Source of the DNA: Squalus acanthias
Taxonomy: Eukaryota
Direction of reading: 5' to 3'
Assembly: GCA_030390025.1 (NCBI GenBank)
Contig: CM059432.1
Location: 81,470,001 to 81,534,000, forward strand
DNA: 64,000 nt
The notes under the pieces are model-generated. The model was not told the DNA's origin and made no database searches. It was given only the letters and a program-made list of their open reading frames with translations. Both the position numbers and the translations under genes were made by a program. Below are positions 1,316 to 61,605 of the stretch, one piece after another (position 1 is the first letter of the stretch; each line of letters begins with the position of its first letter).

Positions 1316-1792
1316 TCTTTAAACTACATATGTCACTGGATAATTACCAAGAGAGAGAATACTAGCTTTTTTACTTCTTCTTCCTAGTCCAGGGACACTG
1401 TGCCCAGTTTTAGTGATGCACTGTTACCTTGGCTAAGATCAGCTAAATCAACATAGTCAGGGAAACATATCTGAGATCTTACTTGTTGGTGTGCCTCAGT
1501 ATATCACCATGAAGGGCATTTGCTCAAGGAACCATCAGGGACTCCATTAAAATTATTTTTGAAAGATTACTAAATTTTAACACTGATGGCTCAACCAAGG
1601 TTTAAAGTTTTAGTGATTTAAATTAATACATTTTATCACTTTATTTGATGCTATGGCTGGAAACAGGTTTGTGATACTGTAACTGAGATCTTCATCAAAT
1701 ATACTCGAACATTTCTGGTGTGGTTATTGTCAGTAAAGATAAAAAGTGAAGAGTTCCAACACTCTCTGTGTACATGGTCTGATAAAATAGAA

Positions 1793-1937
1793 ATGAGAAG
1801 TCGCACAACACCAGGTTATAGTCCAACAGATTTATTTAAAATTACAAGCTTTCGGAGCTATCGCCCCTTCTTCAGGTAAAGTTACAATGAGTGAATCTAC
1901 AAAAGTTCACAGAATATAAACACAGATCTCCGCATCA
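1793..1937. mobile_element. Tiny Penelope-like insertion: inverted pLTR piece plus 3' tail remnant
   Basis: 13-bp TSD tgataaaatagaa (1780-1792 / 1938-1950). 1793-1879 nearly matches 51897-51983, and the end atctccgcatca resembles 52106-52116. Confidence 0.8.
1842..1879 (-). ncRNA. Minimal hammerhead ribozyme motif (PLE-type)
   Basis: Minus strand reads UUAC-CUGAAGA-A-GGGGC-GAUA-GCUCC-GAAA-GCU-U-GUAA: core boxes present, 5-bp stem II, 4-bp stem I, palindromic AGCU stem III. Confidence 0.7.
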
Positions 1938-4219
1938 TGATAAAATAGAAGCTGGATTGCATTTCCACATGAATGAAGTAGTCAGGTAAAATAGATTATC
2001 AGATCTGACTGCGTCAGTCGCTCTTTAGCACTTTCTGTTTCCTGATCCTTATAGAGTACTGGATTTCACACCTAATGATTCCATCTTTCGCCAGGTACCA
2101 CTAATGCAGTATTTGTAGACTGTGTTTGCCAGGGCTCAGGTCTCGTATTGAATGCTTCCGACTTGGAGGCAAAACCATAATATGATCCAATGCCTTTAGG
2201 GCCTCCAAAGCTGTCATTTTCACAAATGGAATCCACTAATTTTCTATTATGCTGTAAAGAGGTCAGAAAGTTATGTAGTGCACTAAATACAAATATTTTG
2301 TGCTCGGATATCACACAAGATAGATTAAGTTTGACTTATGTAATGGTTAAGAGAGGTAAACTTATCTTTAATTTATAGACAATAACCTATTGTGAGTACT
2401 TCAGTTTCACTTCAAAAGTTGGCTTTTTAGATGTTTGGTAAAAGTTATACATATTTAAAGGAATTAAGTAATGTCTGCCTATGTCCTGCTAGAACTACCT
2501 ACTACTTTATAACTAACTGTCTTGCATCACCAGTTATGTCTGCCACTGCAATTTATACATTTTCTGATCAGGGCCCACCATAGGTGACGTGGCTAGAGTC
2601 TGTCCTCTCTGCTGATGACAGCTCATGTAACCTTTCCAGCCAGCCCCCTCAGATGCCTGCTCATTTGGTGTGAAGATACAGTATCAGACTGCCTACACAC
2701 CTGCAATGATGATGCAGTCTGCTGAATAATCGTGCCAGGGCAGGAGTCATAAGACGAGGGCCACCTTGGTCCTAAGAGGTTCACAGGTAGCCCTCAGGTA
2801 GCACCTTGGTGTATCACCAGAATAGTTTAAGAACAGCACATTGAGGCACCAGCATTGCACATTGGTAAGAAGAAGCACCTGTTATAAATATGTATGTGCA
2901 CAGTAAAACCACTTTGTGATATGAAGACCATTGTTTCAAGGTACATCTGTTTTTCATATTTTCGTGTTTGGAACGATGTTGGTATTCAGTTTCAATCAGT
3001 ACATATAGTTCCTTCTATGCCTTTTAATGAGCCACTCCTCCTTAAGCAGATTGCTTCTGATATATTATCAAAAGAATGGTCCAGTTTGGTACCTCCTATG
3101 TGGTTGTCTTCTCCTTTGGTGCAGCCTTATCGTGCATGTCTCTCTCATATCCTCCTCTGCCTGCATCATCAGGATATATATGGGAATGGCCCTAATGAGA
3201 CCCATGGTAAGGGCACCATGACAGAAGGTGGGAAGAAAAAGCTTTTTAATTAGTGCTTCTGGCAAAGCTGATGTTTCAGACAAAGATTGTGAATTCTCAG
3301 AGCCTGTGAACTCAACCGCTTATGGTTTAATAAGTCATGCAGCTAATTTACCCATCTTTTCCACAGGCTGAAGTTAAGTCAGGTGCAATTCTGGTGTAAA
3401 TAGCAGAATTTCTGGTACAGCGGTTTTTGCCCTGATTATCCTGTTTTTTACATAAATCCACCACTTTGGAGGCAGCTGCATTTTCTGACAACATCCAGTT
3501 CCACTGTAATTATCACAAGTTTTAGAATAGGTGTGACTCTGGCATATCTGTCTTTGCTTCAAAATCCAATACTTTATGTGGGACAGTACGACTTTTGCCC
3601 CAGAAAGATCGCAGAATTTTGGGCCCAGATTGTCTTTCTTTGTGCTTAATTTGAGTACTTTCTTTCAACAAATAAATTAGTTAAAATTTGAAAGCAAACA
3701 GAAATCCTTTAATTATCAACTGATTAACATCTGAATTTGGTTGATAGTTAGAAAATGCAAACATTCTAATTACTGAAACCCATGAGACAGTGAGAGGCAG
3801 ATAGAGTCTCTTTTCTTACCTTAATTAGAATATTTTGTCAAATTTGAAAACAATTTTGAAACAGAAAAACTCTAATTATCACTTGTGTTTTGCTGATAAT
3901 CAGAAAATATAAATATTCTAATTTGTGAGAGTTATAAGATACAGAGAGGGAGAGAAAGACAGAGATAGATGGAAATATACACCCAACATCCAGGAACCAA
4001 TCACAAAAAATTTACACCCTGAGATTGCACAGAACCAGTTGCCTTGAGGAAATGCGACCAATCCAGTCCAGTGTTGGTCCTACCATTGCTCATGGAGTGA
4101 GCTTATTTGCATACTCACTGGTCGTGGTATAGTGCAATTCCTAAATAACACAGTCAGAGTGTGCAAGTGAGGGGCGGAAACTTGACATGTAGCCTTTAAA
4201 AATTAGCACTCACTATTTG

Positions 4220-21659: not shown

Positions 21660-22448
21660 GGCTGGAAATTGCAGCCAGAGGCTTCCCGCGGGCGAATGCC
21701 TCCGAACCGCAAGAAAAGTCCGCACCTACCTGGTGCCTCTGTATCTTCGAAGACTCGCGCTCCTGGGCCTGCAGGCATACCGCTGCATAAAGGCCCACAT
21801 ATCCCAGGGGCGCATGTGGTTCGCAAGTGTTCCTGGGATCATGTGGACCGGCCCAACCAATCACAAAGGGGGATTCCCATTATCCTTATGGGGATTCCAT
21901 TTACGGACAGAATTCCCATAAGCAGAATTAGGAATCCCCTAAAAAATACATTTCACAGCACTGAAATAAAAATAAATCATCACATGTTCAAAATTAATTA
22001 AAATACAATTTCATTAAACATTTAAAACAAAAAAATAATTTTTTGAAAAATAAATTTAAACATTTTTCATGGGGCCAAAAATAACCTAAACTAATTTTAA
22101 AGGTTTTTGTATGGTTAAATCATTTAAAAAAAATTATTTTAATATTTATTTAAACCCTTATGCCGGTAAAAGAAGGCCTTACGCCTGCTTTTACCATGAT
22201 GCGGAGATGCCGGTGTTGGACTGGGCATACCAGGCATAAGAGTTTTGTGGGCATTCGCTGGGCAGTAGTTGGGCAAATGGCCCAACACTGCACCAGCAAA
22301 TGTCCATTTCCTGCGGATTCGTACGATCTGTCAAGCTGAAACTTGACAGATTGCAAGTTCCAGGTTTTCGCGCATGCGGGTCTTGCAGGGCACTTACAAC
22401 CGTGTACGCTGTGCGATTGCGGTCATAGGCCCCGGAAAATCCAGGCCC
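21660..22448. mobile_element. Nested Harbinger-like MITE
   Basis: Ends ggctggaaatt / gaaaatccaggccc, candidate TSD atg. CpG-rich arms, AT-rich core and internal hairpins. Confidence 0.65.
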
Positions 22449-22880
22449 ATGTTTCTGCAATGCCACTCAACCTCTCTGGACCAGAAAGTATTAAATTATT
22501 GCTTAAGATTTTTTAAATTTTATGGGGTAGAAATTAGGTCGCGCCCCATTTGGGGCGCAAATATCGTCCGAGCGCAAATATTAGCGCCTGGCGCTAATTA
22601 TCGGCACTGACAGGAAACTTCACTTTTACCGCCCCGGGAGGTGAGTGGAGCGCTAAAGCAGGCGCTGCACACCTCTCTTAAGGCGCAAAGGCCTAGGAGT
22701 GAGGCGCTACCTCAGCGCACGAGCGCAGCGCAGCTGCTGCCAGTTAGCGAGGGAACACAGACACACTGGCGCCGGACACTTCTTAAAGCGGGGGGGTCCA
22801 CTTGCTCCCCAGCCACACCCTGCTCATTGCAGCCTTGAATCTCAGCCTGGAGAGACCTGTAATCCATTTTGCTGCCAAGC

Positions 22881-24703
22881 ATGGAGAGGGTGAGAGAACG
22901 CGCTCATCGCTTCACCGAGCGGGCCTTGGATGCTCTGGTTGACGCAGTGGAGCGCAGACGATGCATGCTGTTCCCGGAGAGTGGCAGGAGGCCTTTGCCA
23001 CGCGAGTTCAGAAGAGTGTGGAGGGAGGTGGCTCAGAGCGTCTCCTCCAGGAGCATGGTGCCCAGGACCCATGTTCAGTGCTGCAAAAAGTTCAACGACC
23101 TCACTCGGGTCGTCAGGGTGAGTGGCTTTTTCTCAATACCTCTCCATCCCTCCATCTCAACCTCACTCTATGGCCAGAGGGTCTTAAAACCCCAATGCAC
23201 AACACTCATGCAACACCTATGGCCCTTTCATCAAACACACACACACATTCCACACTTTGCATACAGTAAGGGCTATTCACCTATGGGAGGCACATCAGGC
23301 AAGACCATGGCTGCATATTGTAAGGGCTATTCACCTATGGGAGGCACATCAGGCAAGACCATGGCTGTATATTTACTCAGATGCTGTCCTTTTTCTTGCA
23401 GGCTAAGCTGGCTCATAATCGGAGACAGCAGCAACGGACGGGTGGAGGGCGGCTTCAGCTGCAACCCCTCAGCGATCTGGAGGAGCGCGTCCACAGGATT
23501 GTGGCAAGCCGGGTGATCGGTCCCGTCGCCACTGGGGACGCCGACCCCGTTGTGGACAGCAATGGTAAGGTCATCACCTTTTTGTCCTCTGTCCTTCCAC
23601 TTGTCCCTCACAATACCAGCCTTTGACACTTTCAATCCAACTTGCTAACTCGCTGCACTTATTCCTCCCTTACTGCCACCCTGTCCTCACGCTAAAGCCA
23701 CTCTTGTACCTCCCTGCTTTCAGATGGTGATTCACCAGCTGAGGAGACGGGCCCTGAAGCTGCCACTGGGAGTGATGCTGCAGCTGAGGAGGAAGAGGAA
23801 GCCGGAGCATCAGTGCCACCCTCTCCCGAGGAAGCCCATGGCCACACTGGGAACACGCCTTCCCCGGAGGGGAGCAGGGGGGAAGGGGCTGATGATGGTG
23901 AAGCTCCAGGACCCAGCGGGCTGCAGCAACGCCATGGGGGGGGGAGGGAAGAACGGGAGCCTTCTCCCCAGAGGGAGAGTATGCCAGACACTCCTACTGC
24001 AATGGACGCAGAGGAGGAGCGGCTGATTGCAGAAATGAACAGCCAGGCGGTGGGCATGCACACTGAGCTCATGGGTGCAGTGGGAAGGGTGCCCGAATGC
24101 ATTGAGGCACTGGCAAGGAGTGTGGAGCACTTCGCTGTAGCACAGGCGGATGCCACACTAAAGCTTAGTGCTGCAATTCAGTCACTGGCTGCCAGGAACC
24201 CATCTGAGACTGCTCTCATGCAGACTCAGATTGAGGCCATGCGAGCACTGACTGCTGCCATCCTCGATGGTTCGTGCACATGTCCCCGGGGCTGTCACCG
24301 CGCCGCAGCAGGCCAGCAATCTGTTCTCCGGCAAATTGCTCCGGATGCTGAAGTGCTGCCCCGTGGGAGTGCCAGTGTGTCGGGCGAGCAGGGAGTTGCT
24401 GTCCTCTCTCACGATGACAGCATTCCTGCTGCCAACACTGTCACTTCTCCACTGCACTTGCCACCGCCTGTAGGACAGACTGCTGCCGCCCATGCAGAGT
24501 TGGTGCAGTCTGCAGCCGGGCCCTCCAGGCCCAGAAGTGGTCGAGGCCGTCCTTCAGGGGCATCTGCAGTGTCAGGGTCTGACGAGCAGCAGCCTTCCAC
24601 CAGCCTTGCTGCAGCCACTGAGATCCCATTACGGAGGAGCAGTAGGGTTAGAAGGGGGGAAGTGCGCAAGGGAAGGAGATCACCCTCGAAGGGCAAAAAG
24701 TAG
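22881..24703 (+). CDS. Harbinger Myb/SANT-like (trihelix) DNA-binding protein; predicted exons 22881-23117, 23402-23564, 23724-24703 (~459 aa)
   Basis: MERVRERAHRFTERALDALV...WREVA...RTHVQCCKKFNDL | AKLAHNRRQQQRTGGG. GT-AG introns of phase 0 and 1 join in frame to ORF 23813-24703, which ends in a basic NLS-like tail. Confidence 0.85.
23258..23365. repeat. 54-bp tandem duplication in Myb intron 1
   Basis: tgcata..gtaagggctattcacctatgggaggcacatcaggcaagaccatggc occurs twice. Confidence 0.9.
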
Positions 24704-24997: not shown

Positions 24998-26158
24998 CTA
25001 GAAGCGGCTTGCTATTAGTCGTTGACGGACGGCCCTTGCAGTTTGACCATTGTGGGCCGCCCTCCTGCCTTGGTGCTGCTGATGATCATCGTCCTCGTCC
25101 TGTTCCTCCTCTTCCTCCTCCTCCTCTGGTGGTGCTACAAGGCCTGGTGGCATTGGCTGGGTCCTGAGGATTGCCATGTTGTGCAACATGCAGCACACGA
25201 CTACGAAGTTCGAAACTTGCTCAGGCGAGTACTGCAGGGCTCCTCCGGAATGGTCCAGACAGCGGAACCGTTGTTTCAGCACGCCGATTGTGCGCTCAAT
25301 AATGTTCCTGGTTGCTTGATGGCTTTCCTGGTACCGCAGCTCAGCAGGGGTGTTTGGCGCACGGAGCGGTGTCATCAGCCAGGTGCTCAATGCGTACCCC
25401 TTGTCCCCCAGAAGCCAACCAACTGGCTGATGCGGTGCCTCGAAAAGTTCTGCCACGGTAGTCTGGCGCAGGATGAAAGCATCGTGGCAGCTGCCCGGAT
25501 AGTGGGCATTGACAGCGAGAATCACCTGTCTGTGGTCACAGACCAACTGCACATTCAAGGAATGGAACCCCTTTCTGTTCCTGAATTCCTCTGCATTCTC
25601 TCGCGGAGCACGCAAAGCCACATGCGTGCAGTCAATGGCGCCCTGCACCATGGGGAAGCCCGCTACCCTCGCAAAGCCCATAGCACGGTCATGCTGCTTG
25701 TCTGGGGTCATAGGGAAAGAGATGAAGTCTCGTCTCCTTCTGAAGAGGGCATTGGTGACCTGCCGGATGCAGCGATGCACCGCAAACTGGGAGATATTGG
25801 CGAGGTCCCCAACAGCAGCTTGGAATGAGCCAGTGGCGTAGAAGTTCAAAGCCACTGTGACCTTCACTGCCACCGACAGAGACGTCCTGGACCTCAGCTG
25901 AGGCTGCAGATCTGGCTGCAGCAGGTGGCAGAGCTCAGTGACCACCTCCTTGCTGAATCGCAGCCTTCGCAAACACAGCTCCTCGGACATATGGATGTAG
26001 GAGAGCTGTTCACGATATACCCTGGGAGGGTAAGCTCTCCTGTACATGCGCCTGATGGCCCTCCTCCGTCTGGCCATCATTGCCACTCTCTGTCTGCGTC
26101 TCACTATCCTCCGATTCAGCTGGAGCAGGACGACGCCCCCAATCATTGCAGCCCCCAT
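24998..26158 (-). CDS. PIF/Harbinger DDE transposase (HARBI1-like nuclease), 386 aa, uninterrupted
   Basis: Catalytic motifs GAIDCTHV, GWLLGDKGY and RNIIERTIGVLKQRFRCL; HTH region; YPGSCHDAFIL; CCMLHN. Confidence 0.96.
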   Translation of the reverse strand: MGAAMIGGVVLLQLNRRIVRRRQRVAMMARRRRAIRRMYRRAYPPRVYREQLSYIHMSEELCLRRLRFSKEVVTELCHLLQPDLQPQLRSRTSLSVAVKVTVALNFYATGSFQAAVGDLANISQFAVHRCIRQVTNALFRRRRDFISFPMTPDKQHDRAMGFARVAGFPMVQGAIDCTHVALRAPRENAEEFRNRKGFHSLNVQLVCDHRQVILAVNAHYPGSCHDAFILRQTTVAELFEAPHQPVGWLLGDKGYALSTWLMTPLRAPNTPAELRYQESHQATRNIIERTIGVLKQRFRCLDHSGGALQYSPEQVSNFVVVCCMLHNMAILRTQPMPPGLVAPPEEEEEEEEQDEDDDHQQHQGRRAAHNGQTARAVRQRLIASRF

Positions 26159-26351
26159 ATTCTCTTTGCCAGAAAAGTAATGAGGTACAGCAACTAAAGT
26201 AGCAACAAAGTTAGGATGAACTAGGCCAAACTACCTCACAAAGCGTTGAGTCAATGTAGAAGTCTCTCTCTCTCTCTCTCCGAATCTCTCTCTCTCTCTC
26301 AGAACGAGTGGTGCATAAATGTCGACCACAGAAAAAGACAGGAAGAGGCCC

Positions 26352-51782: not shown

Positions 51783-51893
51783 TGGCTCAGTAGTCAATCT
51801 TTACCTACTGTTCTGCTACTCTACTGATGCAGTTTTCTGAAATGTTTGCAGAAATATTAACATCAACTTGCGCTTACATAACATCTTTAATTT

Positions 51894-52118
51894 AAAATGA
51901 GAAGTCGCACAACACCAGGTTATAGTCCAACAGTTTTATTTAAAATTACGAGCTTTCGGAGCTGCTGCCCCTTCGTCAGGTAGAGGTACCTTTACCTGAC
52001 GAAGGGGCAGCAGCTCCGAAAGCTCGTAATTTTAAATAAAACTGTTGGACTATAACCTGGTGTTGTGCGACTTCTCATTTTTGTCCACCCCAGTCCAACA
52101 CCGGCATCTCGCATCATG
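51894..52118. mobile_element. Penelope-like mini-element: 188-bp palindrome of pLTR plus 37-bp tail
   Basis: Arms 51894-51987 / 51988-52081 with one mismatch; tail 52082-52118; 12-bp TSD atctttaattta. Confidence 0.9.
51992..52029 (+). ncRNA. Minimal hammerhead ribozyme motif (mirror copy on minus strand near 51946-51983)
   Basis: UUAC-CUGACGA-A-GGGGC-AGCA-GCUCC-GAAA-GCU-C-GUAA. Confidence 0.75.
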
Positions 52119-52512
52119 ATCTTTAATTTAGAAGAACGCCACAAAATACTTTACGTGACTGGAGAGGTGGGATACAGCAGGAGTTAGAAGAGTCAATGAG
52201 GTAATGAAGACATGCGAAGAGATAGCTTCCAAGGAAGATATTGGAAGTGGGGAAGAGTGAGCTAGCTAAAAGCTTTGTCACCAGAGGTGGTGTGTAGCGA
52301 TCAGGCATCATTATATTTGGCTATAAATAAGACAATAGCTGATGCCTTTAAACTATTTAAAGATTTTTTTGTGGTTATTATCATTTTGTTTGACATAATA
52401 CTATATAACAGTCATGCATTAGATTGATAACAATTTAATAATAATTGGATTTATTACAGTTTGCGACATATTTTACCAAGTTGACTGACACCAGCTAAGT
52501 CATCTTCTCTCT

Positions 52513-53600
52513 GAAATAAAAACAGAAAATGCTGGAAATACTGTGGAGATGTAACAGTCAGGCAACATCTGTGGAGAGAGAAACAGAGTTAACGTTTCAG
52601 GTCGATGACCTTTCGTCAGAACTGGAAGAAGTTGGCGATGTAACAGTTTTTAAGGAAGTACAGAGGCAGGGAAAGAAGAGTGGGGGGAGGAAAGAACAAA
52701 AGGGGAAGTCTGTGATTGGGTGGAAAGCAGAAGTGATGAAATGACAAAAAGGATGGTGCAAGGTAAAAGGGGGTGGTAATGGGACAAGTAAAGAAACAAA
52801 AGATGGGTCTAGAGGAGGTGTAAATGGCAACAGCAGAACCATTAACAGCACCTGCTGTCCGAAAAAATAGGAGCAGTGGCTATGATCTGAAATCAGTGTT
52901 GAGTCCGGAAGGTTGTAAAGTGTCTAATTGAAAGATGAAGTGCTGTTCCTCGAGCTTCTGTTGCGCTTCATTGGAACAGTGTAAGAGGCCAAGGACAGTG
53001 AGGTCAGAGTGGGTGTGGGACGGAAAATCAAAATGGCAAATGACTGGAAGCTCGGGCTCACGCTTGTGGACTGAAGGGAGGTGTCCAGTAAAGCGGTCAC
53101 CCAATCTGCATTTGGTCTCTCCAATGTAGAGGAGACCGCATCGTGAGCAGCAAATGCAATATATTAAATTGAAAGAAGTACAAGTGAATCGCTTTTTCAT
53201 CTGAAGGAGTGTTTTCGGGCCCTGGACGGTGGGAACGGAGGAGGTGAAAGGGCAGGTGTTGCATTTCCTGCACTTGCACGGGAAAGTGCCGTGGAAAGGG
53301 GAGAAGGTGTCAGGGTGAATTGAAGAGTGGATCAGCGTGTTGCGGGGGGAATGGTCTTTTCGGAATGCTGAAAGGGGAGGCATTTGAGGGAAGGGGAAGA
53401 AGTGTTTGGTGGTGACATCGTGCTGGAGGTGGCGGAGGATGATCCACTGAATGTGGAGGCTAGTGGCATGGAAGGTGAGGACAAGGGGGACCCTATTGTG
53501 GTTCTGAGAGGGAGGGGAAGGTGTGAGGGCAGTGGTGTGGGAAATGGGATGGACATGGTCGAGGGCCATGTCAACCACAGTGGAGGGGAATCCATTGTGC
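52513..53600 (-). mobile_element. Penelope-like (Neptune-type) element 3' part with GIY-YIG endonuclease and pLTR
   Basis: ORF 52880-53623: Cys-rich linker CKCRKCNTC, NLIYCICCSRCGLLYIGET, RF..H, EQHFI..L.TL.P.GLN. Confidence 0.9.
52587..52623 (-). ncRNA. Minimal hammerhead ribozyme motif in Neptune pLTR
   Basis: AGUU-CUGACGA-A-AGGUC-AUC-GACCU-GAAA-CGU-U-AACU; palindromic ACGU stem III. Confidence 0.75.
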
Positions 53601-53824
53601 ACTTCTGCAGAACTTCTCTGCACAAGTTACTAAAGAGGGGGCCTAGGTTATAAAGGAATGCTAATGCATATGGGAACTTGGGACCTCAGGCCATTACTTC
53701 TAGCTGCCTTTTTTATTCTTGACCCCTCTCGGGCCCTTCACTCCTGTCTTCTCCGCATCCTGCCAGCCAGTCATGCCACGTTTTATTTCTCCCAAATTAT
53801 GAGGACAGGTTGCACAAACGTCAG

Positions 53825-59900: not shown

Positions 59901-61500
59901 AGGGGAGTCTCCGAGACGTTCAACTAGCTCATTTTTTATGGCGAAGCCTACCCCATGGAGGTGGCGTTCTTCTTCAGGTTTGCCTTTCCAGAAGAAGGTG
60001 TAACCACCGCCTTGCTCCTTGAGCTGGCCTTCCCCTGCCCGCTGGGTCTCGCTTAGGGCGGCGATGTCTATGTCGAAACGTCTGAGCTTCTGGGCAACGA
60101 TAGCAGTACGACGTTCCGGTCTGTCGCTGTTGGGGTTGTCCATGAGGGTCCTGACGCTCCAGGTCCCGAACTTCATTTTAAAGGGTGGAAGATGCCTGTG
60201 CGTGAATTCTTTTAACGTAGGGTGGCCGTTGCACACCAGGTACCACACGGGCTTGACAGAGCGAGGTCTTGGTCCAATGGCAAGGGGATCCAAGACGATT
60301 GGAGACCAGGCTCTGCTACATCGGCCTAGCACACACACACAAACATACTCCTACTGTCCTCCTCCCTCCTTCCCGCAGGTCCTCTCTGCCTGGGTTTCAT
60401 AGGCTGCAGTGTGGTCCTCCCGACCCCGCTGCTGGTCCATGCTGCGCCACTCCTGGGCCTCGACTTCGCTGCTGGGCTCGTCCTCGCTCCTGGGCCTCGT
60501 CCTCGCCCCTGGGCCTTGACCTCGCTCCTGGGTCCCGTCCTCGCTCCTGGGTCCCGACCTCGCTCCTGGGCCTCGACCTCGCTCCTGGGCCTCGACCTCG
60601 CTCCTGGGCCCCGTCCTCGCCCCTGGGCCCCGTCCTCGCCCCTGCCCCTCGTCCTCGCTCCTGGGCCTCGACCTCGCTCCTGGGCCTCGACCTCGCTTCT
60701 GGGCCCCGTCCTCGCCCCTGGGCCCCGTCCTTGCTCCTGGGTCCCGACCTCGCTCCTGGGCCTCGACCTCGCTCCTGGGCCTCGACCTCGCTCCTGGGCC
60801 CCGTCCTCGCCCCTGGGCCCCGTCCTCGCCCCTGCGCCTCGTCCTCGCTCCTGGGCCTCGACCTCGCTCCTGGGCCTCGACCTCGCTCCTGGGTCCCGAC
60901 CTCGCTCCTGGGCCTCGTCCTCGCTCCAGGGCCTCGACCTCACTCCTGGGCCTCGACCTCGCTCCTGGGTCCCGTCCTCGCTCCTGGGTCCCGACCTCGC
61001 TCCTGGGCCTCGTCCTCGCTCCAGGGCCCCGACCTCGCTCCAGGGCCCCGTCCTCGCCCCTGCGCCTCGTCCTCGCTCCTGGGCCTCGACCTCGCTCCTG
61101 GGTCCCGTCCTCGCTCCTGGGTCCCGTCCTCGCTCCTGGGTCCCGACCTCGCTCCTGGGCCTCGACCTCGCTCCTGGGTCCCGTCCTCGCTCCTGGGTCC
61201 CGACCTCGCTCCTGGGCCTCGTCCTCGCTCCTGGGCCTCGTCCTCGCTCCAGGGCCCCGACCTCGCTCCAGGGCCCCGTCCTCGCCCCTGCGCCTCGTCC
61301 TCGCTCCTGGGCCTCGACCTCGCTCCTGGGTCCCGTCCTCGCTCCTGGGTCCCGACCTCGCTCCTGGGCCTCGACCTCGCTCCTGGGCCCCGTCCTCGCC
61401 CCTGGGCCTCGTCCTCGCTCCTGGGCCTCGCCCTCGCTCCTGGGCCCCGACCTCGCTCCTGGGCCTCAACCTCGCTCCTGGGTCCCGACATTACATGTAA
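56962..61500 (-). mobile_element. Essentially full-length RTE-clade (BovB-like) LINE, frameshifted, with 5' tandem array
   Basis: EN motifs MKFGTWSVRTL, AALSET, LGDFNARVG, TDH; RT motifs QCGFR, FFDLTKAFDTV, GVKQGCV, YADD; C-terminus HIVRMPDTRLPK. Candidate TSD cgtttcctac / cgttttctac. Confidence 0.9.
60450..61489. repeat. GC-rich minisatellite, 19-bp unit (cctcgacctcgctcctggg), ~54 copies
   Basis: Direct reading; 19-aa periodicity in the translated frames; a 228-bp (12-unit) higher-order duplication at 61021 vs 61249. Confidence 0.95.
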
Positions 61501-61510
61501 CGTTTTCTAC

Positions 61511-61605
61511 ATTACAACAGTGACTACACTTCAAAGGTACGTCATTGGCTGTAAAGCACTTGGGAATGTCCTGAGGTTCTGAAAGTGCAAGCCTTTCTTT
61601 CTTTT
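61511..61605 (+). mobile_element. DeuSINE 3' part
   Basis: attacaacagtgactacacttcaaa...tgtaaagcactttggg...(cttt)n, colinear with 28970-29069. Confidence 0.8.

Follow-up and report, generated by a model that had tools for sequence, protein, structure and literature searches.

The window analysed here, a 64,000-nucleotide stretch of repeat-rich animal DNA, contains a near-perfect palindrome that carries a hammerhead motif on each strand and a short tail on one side only. The question raised by this locus is whether, as an earlier note on this DNA proposed, the palindrome stands alone as a mini-retroelement or is what is left of the insertion of something larger. The best explanation, to which we give a probability of about 0.8, is a stump-sized, 5'-truncated, head-to-head insertion of the end of a high-copy Penelope-like element (PLE). 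The anatomy of the insertion, the fixed outer ends and variable inner ends of its family, and the absence of the element from the matching site of a second organism are the observations behind this reading.

The features of the insertion, and of the two other copies of its family in the window, are as follows.

51883–51894, plus strand: left target-site duplication, 12 bp, AT-rich target (repeat comparison)
51894–51987, minus strand: left arm, an inverted 5'-truncated element end with no tail; its outer end is that of the copy at 1791
51950–51982, minus strand: the left arm's minimal hammerhead motif, with a core that starts at 51979 (motif descriptor)
51986–51989, no strand assigned: junction GTAC, self-complementary, which may represent a 4-nt microhomology within the family sequence
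51988–52081, plus strand: right arm, a sense 5'-truncated element end (repeat comparison)
51992–52029, plus strand: minimal type I hammerhead motif (motif descriptor)
52035–52040, plus strand: AATAAA, also in copy 1
52082–52118, plus strand: one-sided tail, 37 nt as assembled (alignment of window copies)
52119–52130, plus strand: right target-site duplication (repeat comparison)
1780–1950, minus strand: second family copy (copy 1), a 135-nt tail-less arm at 1791–1925 joined to an oppositely oriented tail end of 14 nt
22192–22232, minus strand: third family copy (copy 3), 31 nt of tail only with a 5-bp duplication, weak on its own

The two arms are 94 nt each (51894–51987 and 51988–52081), abut with a spacer of 0, and are identical at 93 of 94 sites, the sole mismatch being G51983 versus T51992. 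They lie within a 12-bp direct repeat, ATCTTTAATTTA, at 51883–51894 and 52119–52130, which is the target-site duplication; repeats of at least 12 at comparable spacing occur at 3 of 20,000 random window positions. Because the duplication and the left arm share one base, the last of the former and the first of the latter, the boundary reads equally as 11+94 or 12+93. The tail (52082–52118) is found on the right arm side only, is A/C-rich, ends in CATCATG, and is predicted by folding to pair back onto the arm. The family tail length is probably 38 nt rather than 37, since both other window copies, and the loose contig ends at 52110, have one more C. The AATAAA at 52035 in the right arm is, from its sequence, a candidate signal. 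The spacer-free 94-bp arms with their single mismatch, the 12-bp duplication, the asymmetric 37-bp tail, and an AATAAA downstream of the motif had all been described in the earlier note, and each is present at these positions.

A strict minimal-hammerhead descriptor written for this analysis has four matches in the 64-kb window and none in 200 dinucleotide shuffles. Two of the four are the arms, one at 51996 on the plus strand with a predicted cut after C52025, and one at 51979 on the minus strand with a predicted cut after 51950. The right-arm motif consists of a 4-bp stem I, a core at 51996–52002, an extra A at 52003, a 5-bp stem II, GAAA at 52018–52021, and a palindromic AGCU that replaces stem III. 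The left-arm motif also has a 5-bp stem II, and its stem I is 3 bp instead of 4 because the arm mismatch at 51983 sits within it; copy 1, which contains the motif as well, carries the right arm's base at this site. A search of the window with Rfam at the gathering score gave no matches. In PMC4209133, minimal type I hammerheads are described by features that are all present here (core, stems I and II, an extra base at 9/10.1, a G10.1–C11.1 pair, and a palindromic 15.2–16.2), and the metazoan PLE minimal hammerheads share with these motifs the core boxes, the placement of the extra base before stem II, the lack of a loop 3, and a short stem I. The proposal of a PLE-type minimal hammerhead on each strand, with a loopless palindromic stem III, is therefore upheld by the descriptor and by these features.

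Folding predicts that a transcript of either strand forms a hairpin of ~92 bp, at −174 and −179 kcal/mol for the two strands; the two stems of the hammerhead are predicted at −8 kcal/mol, and the AGCU duplex at only −2.5 kcal/mol. Dimer cleavage by minimal hammerheads is summarised in PMC6765202, and an unconstrained two-strand fold did not yield an active hammerhead dimer. The predicted hairpin, at about −174 kcal/mol, agrees with the earlier suggestion that transcripts would mask the ribozyme. In the palindromic copy the ribozyme is probably silent, as the inverted arm would be the first to be made and a tandem partner is lacking. The production of siRNA and the formation of a cruciform are plausible for such a palindrome.

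Comparison of the three window copies reveals fixed outer ends and variable inner ends. All three have the outer end CATCATG, and the two tail-less arms (palindrome and copy 1) share one outer endpoint, while the inner ends are different in each copy and the duplications are 12, 13 and 5 bp in length (palindrome, copy 1 and copy 3). The duplication of copy 1 becomes 11 bp without the shared TG. The arm of copy 1 is ~92% alike to the palindrome arm over 95 nt, and the flanking DNA of the two copies measured is 70–85% AT. The short, imperfect inverted repeat in which copy 3 sits (22180–22245) belongs to a different repeat family. Such fixed outer and variable inner ends argue for truncated insertions rather than for a self-copying unit. 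The family also continues upstream of the palindrome centre, by 40 nt in copy 1, which has GTAA where the centre has GTAC. In X1, one of the public sequencing runs described below, 17 contigs have loose ends before 51986; over the 14 letters nearest to that point, their consensus agrees with copy 1 at 13. The claim of a free-standing mini-retroelement is not supported by this comparison, because the family runs past the centre and the inner junction varies by copy.

Public contigs provide a broader view of these junctions. Five of 24 listed runs cover most of the window; they represent one organism (organism A), two samples and two studies, and the assembly itself may derive from one of the five. 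Contigs were compared for four of the 24 runs (X1, X5, X6 and X16). The best-supported 27 of 275 joints were considered, namely 15 out of 189 joints, and 12 out of 86 in which letters separate the joined segments; after 6 and 3 rows leaving the element and 4 duplicates were dropped, the remaining 14 gave 12 distinct junctions. At least 12 distinct junctions between inverted and sense arms are thus present among the rows listed, and two of the 12 are symmetric. An inverted, 5'-truncated adjacent copy is accordingly seen in the palindrome, in copy 1, and in the 12 junctions listed. Some junction contigs have depths of 70–180, compared with 11–16 for unique flanks, so several loci share those junctions. 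Recurrent joining would explain this, and so would the re-copying of fold-back units.

The family is a probable member of the PLEs; this assignment comes from structure, as no reading frame can be linked to the family here, and no RT or GIY-YIG frame adjoins any of the three window copies. The characters expected of EN+ PLEs were found, including a terminal hammerhead, an inverted 5'-truncated copy, a one-sided 30–40-bp tail, a short variable duplication, and AT-rich target DNA. Two papers describe the inverted 5'-truncated copy and the 30–40-bp tail as typical of PLEs (PMC8557442; PMC8969392), and rotifer PLE copies are described with an inverted pLTR, a 31-bp tail, 8–10-bp duplications and junction palindromes (PMC3846280). 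The locus resembles Pen2a_Av and its relatives (PMC3846280, PMC8557442) in its head-to-head terminal copies, junction palindrome, one-sided 30–40-bp tail, short duplication and 5' truncation. However, both copies are only 94 bp here, and consequently there is no reading frame between them. The available text of PMC4209133, which does not name sharks, reports PLE hammerhead motif pairs on opposite strands 100–700 bp apart and a stem II of 7–8 bp in Schistosoma families, whereas here the two cores start 17 bp apart and stem II is 5 bp.

A further parallel is with PAc, the Poseidon element of Anolis carolinensis, which in PMC11167929 has AT-rich targets, a structured, A/C-rich tail bounded by two inferred start sites, and a hammerhead upstream of the tail, as the present family does; the hammerhead and tail of PAc lie in the start of its reading frame, and here the tail ends at an ATG. 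Animal non-LTR retrozymes, in a recent preprint (bioRxiv 10.64898/2026.07.22.740005), are likewise non-coding and PLE-related with a type I hammerhead, but they are head-to-tail tandems, unlike the palindrome, which is head-to-head with a tail and a duplication. A non-LTR retrozyme was rejected, as the window contains no direct tandem of the arm. Also rejected was a MITE or fold-back DNA transposon, a class with inverted repeats at both ends, a fixed duplication length and a uniform size; here the tail breaks the symmetry, the duplications are 5, 12 and 13 bp, and three copies have three sizes. Scans with a family pattern gave no matches in metagenomes, viral sequences or prokaryote genomes. 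A metagenome scan with the tail pattern gave eight loci, all of which match only 19–22 bases, and these were dropped as chance. Judged from its sequence, the locus is an instance of the described PLE insertion form at minimal size.

The assembled locus was also compared with independent contigs. In X1, a unique-depth contig from the left flank enters the inverted arm by 23 letters; on the right, flank contigs of X1 and X5 enter the tail with 9 aligned letters and 17 or 20 unaligned ones. These junction contigs, with 23 letters on the left and at most 26–29 on the right, fall below the 31-letter bridging rule, a short reach that is expected, because a unitig that runs into a high-copy repeat should stop no more than 30 letters inside it. 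The left contig of X5 stops at 51889 plus 2 letters, inside the duplication. Among about 68,000 pieces, 32 were listed, and none of these crosses the exact centre of the locus. Run X16, guessed to be RNA, has family contigs and zero cover on the unique flanks of the locus, and is uninformative on this copy. As for small errors, the window is without one base at 52214 that X1, X5 and X6 all have, which indicates that small assembly errors exist in the window, and one C at 52110 is probably also missing; both are likely assembly indels. The possibility that the palindrome is a fold-back assembly artefact, raised in the earlier note, is unlikely: no sign of it was found, and contigs of organism A run from both unique flanks into the element.

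The matching site is empty in a second, related organism (organism B). One 1044-nt contig of this organism joins 51893 to 52146 without the element, with 492 and 254 window letters on either side, and its flanks differ from the window at 26 of 746 positions (3.5%). A clean empty site would have 16 letters at the join; the contig has 5, and is thus 11 short. Hammerhead-crossing sequence closely similar to this copy (bin 51974–52014) has a summed contig depth, which is not taken as a copy number, of 162 in organism B versus 603,601 in X1, and C52025 is present in 0% of the depth in organism B versus 27–45% in organism A. With this sequence nearly absent from organism B, the subfamily looks younger than the split between the two organisms. 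The sequence comparison favours insertion after that split rather than loss in organism B, and agrees with the youth that had been proposed for the insertion. As a marker, the locus distinguishes organism A from organism B by the presence or absence of the insertion.

The insertion was probably produced by an RT-endonuclease of the element acting in trans, which would nick both strands of an AT-rich target ~12 bp apart. By analogy with the biochemistry of PAc, each nick would then prime reverse transcription of element RNA at one of two fixed starts ~38 nt apart, one start site giving the arm with the tail and the other giving the tail-less arm. Both cDNAs would halt upstream of the hammerhead core, ~10 nt from it, and may join via the self-complementary GTAC to form a spacer-free palindrome between the target duplications. 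The palindrome would then be a by-product of insertion, dead on arrival, with a 92-bp hairpin locking up its hammerheads. What we infer in this scheme is the enzyme, the pair of priming events and the silence of the ribozyme. PAc, the only PLE reconstituted in vitro according to PMC11167929, cuts both strands and extends them, favours AT-rich DNA, and begins reverse transcription at two sites bounding the tail. Dual start sites of this kind would explain why there are two arms and why just one of them bears a tail. Two primings are also needed for copy 1, a single case, since its 135-nt tail-less arm stands beside a 14-nt tail end and neither contains the other.

The exact symmetry of this copy is, on its own, equally compatible with single-strand fold-back. 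The same family could have acquired its second arm by self-priming, in which a nucleic acid end folds at GTAC and is then copied, and this would suit a palindrome that is exactly symmetric around a self-complementary word with arms identical at 93 of 94 sites; self-priming has been proposed for rotifer Penelope junction palindromes (PMC3846280). However, it cannot produce copy 1, 10 of the 12 other junctions listed are asymmetric, and the one-sided tail is directly explained by two start sites, leaving self-priming quite unlikely. Less probable again is a non-autonomous unit, in the manner of a mini-retroelement or retrozyme, of which the palindrome and tail would be transcribed and re-inserted whole. 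Some inverted junctions do recur at depths of 100–180 in two samples, and among the contigs listed, two that belong to other copies span a centre close to this position (X1 record 2, with 4 differences and 2 gaps, and X5 record 19, with 7 differences); moreover, non-autonomous PLE derivatives are known from PMC8557442 and bioRxiv 10.64898/2026.07.22.740005. Such a unit should not appear as three structures in three window copies and as at least 12 distinct junctions among the rows listed, it lacks the head-to-tail tandem typical of animal retrozymes, and its ribozyme would be hidden by the 92-bp hairpin.

Least probable of all is that the locus is misread as to its origin, either because the element was present in the ancestor of organisms A and B and was deleted in B with ~11 flanking bases, or because the palindrome is an assembly fold-back. 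The 11 letters by which the organism B contig falls short of a clean empty site would suit a deletion, and the sub-threshold junction contigs, the early end of the X5 left contig at 51889 plus 2 letters, and at least one indel (52214) relative to all three DNA runs would suit an artefact. Yet a direct duplication and a one-sided tail would not be products of read fold-back, unitigs are expected to end where they do, and the near lack of hammerhead-crossing sequence from organism B (162 versus 603,601) counts against ancestral presence. The preferred reading remains an insertion, by two primings, of a truncated PLE end.

A second PLE-like family end lies at 52510–53626 on the minus strand with a 248-codon open stretch. 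Its frame at 52880–53626 has a weak GIY-YIG match (E 0.01, below the cut-off), and its minimal hammerhead (52619–52591) has the palindrome ACGU versus AGCU in the present family, followed by a pyrimidine tract and CAG. This family is also very abundant in the public contigs of organisms A and B. The GIY-YIG-like frame, 750 bp downstream, was rejected as a partner of the palindrome because its hammerhead is different and it has no nucleotide match to the palindrome's family. Several contigs in X1, X5, X6 and X16 join 52077–52110 to 52513–52515, which places both hammerhead family ends close together at other loci, and the two families may insert within or beside each other.

An acceptor-like stretch was noted by eye at 52074–52093. 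Also by eye, a GT lies immediately past the predicted cut; together with a CTCAT that resembles a branch point, a run of pyrimidines and a CAG at 52093, it could bound a 68-nt intron, and the tail's final ATG could serve as a start codon in this putative arrangement (window 52026–52118). No intron-like skip over 52026–52093 was found among the 15 joints listed. A spliceosomal intron in the terminal repeat is a trait of some EN+ PLE families. Elsewhere in the window, the long frames presumably resemble LINE, Harbinger and gypsy proteins; among them is a 410-codon frame at 24998–26230 on the minus strand that we take to be a Harbinger-like transposase, facing what would be its Myb-like partner frame at 22863–24703 on the plus strand. 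A neighbouring frame has just two matches among 555 candidates, ray and shark proteins at 50–51% identity, which is the basis for calling the genome shark-like. A GC-rich tandem array with a 19-bp period and about 50 or more units is present at 60340–61600.

The positions of the inner ends relative to the predicted cut suggest a further possibility. If templates were cut by their own hammerhead in vivo, inner ends should cluster just past the cut and avoid the core. None of 24 inner ends falls in the 30-nt hammerhead core, where a uniform distribution would place 8.6 (P about 2e-5), and eight of 24 fall within 12 nt after the predicted cut, compared with 3.4 expected (P 0.015), in bins picked after the data were seen, on the best-supported 27 of 275 rows, and with ends that are not independent. 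In one listed junction both arms end exactly at 52026, the first base past the predicted cut. Microhomology offered by the words AATT (52028) and TTAA (52032) is a confounder, and where the core has diverged, the 88% threshold may leave junctions hidden. The pattern is a hint of hammerhead cleavage in vivo, and no more. It is possible, though doubtful, that the fold-back stumps form a fossil record of the PLE cycle, in which reverse transcription was dual and many templates had been pre-cut by their own hammerhead in vivo. In RNA-seq of PAc, no reads ending at the cut are reported in PMC11167929, and a literature search did not find genomic evidence of germ-line cleavage by PLE minimal hammerheads.

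As one among very many stumps of an abundant repeat, the single locus matters little. The stump population, in contrast, is a large natural data set on the inverted ends and tails of PLEs and on hammerhead cutting in vivo. If the fossil-record reading is true, these stumps would provide genomic evidence of germ-line cleavage by PLE minimal hammerheads.
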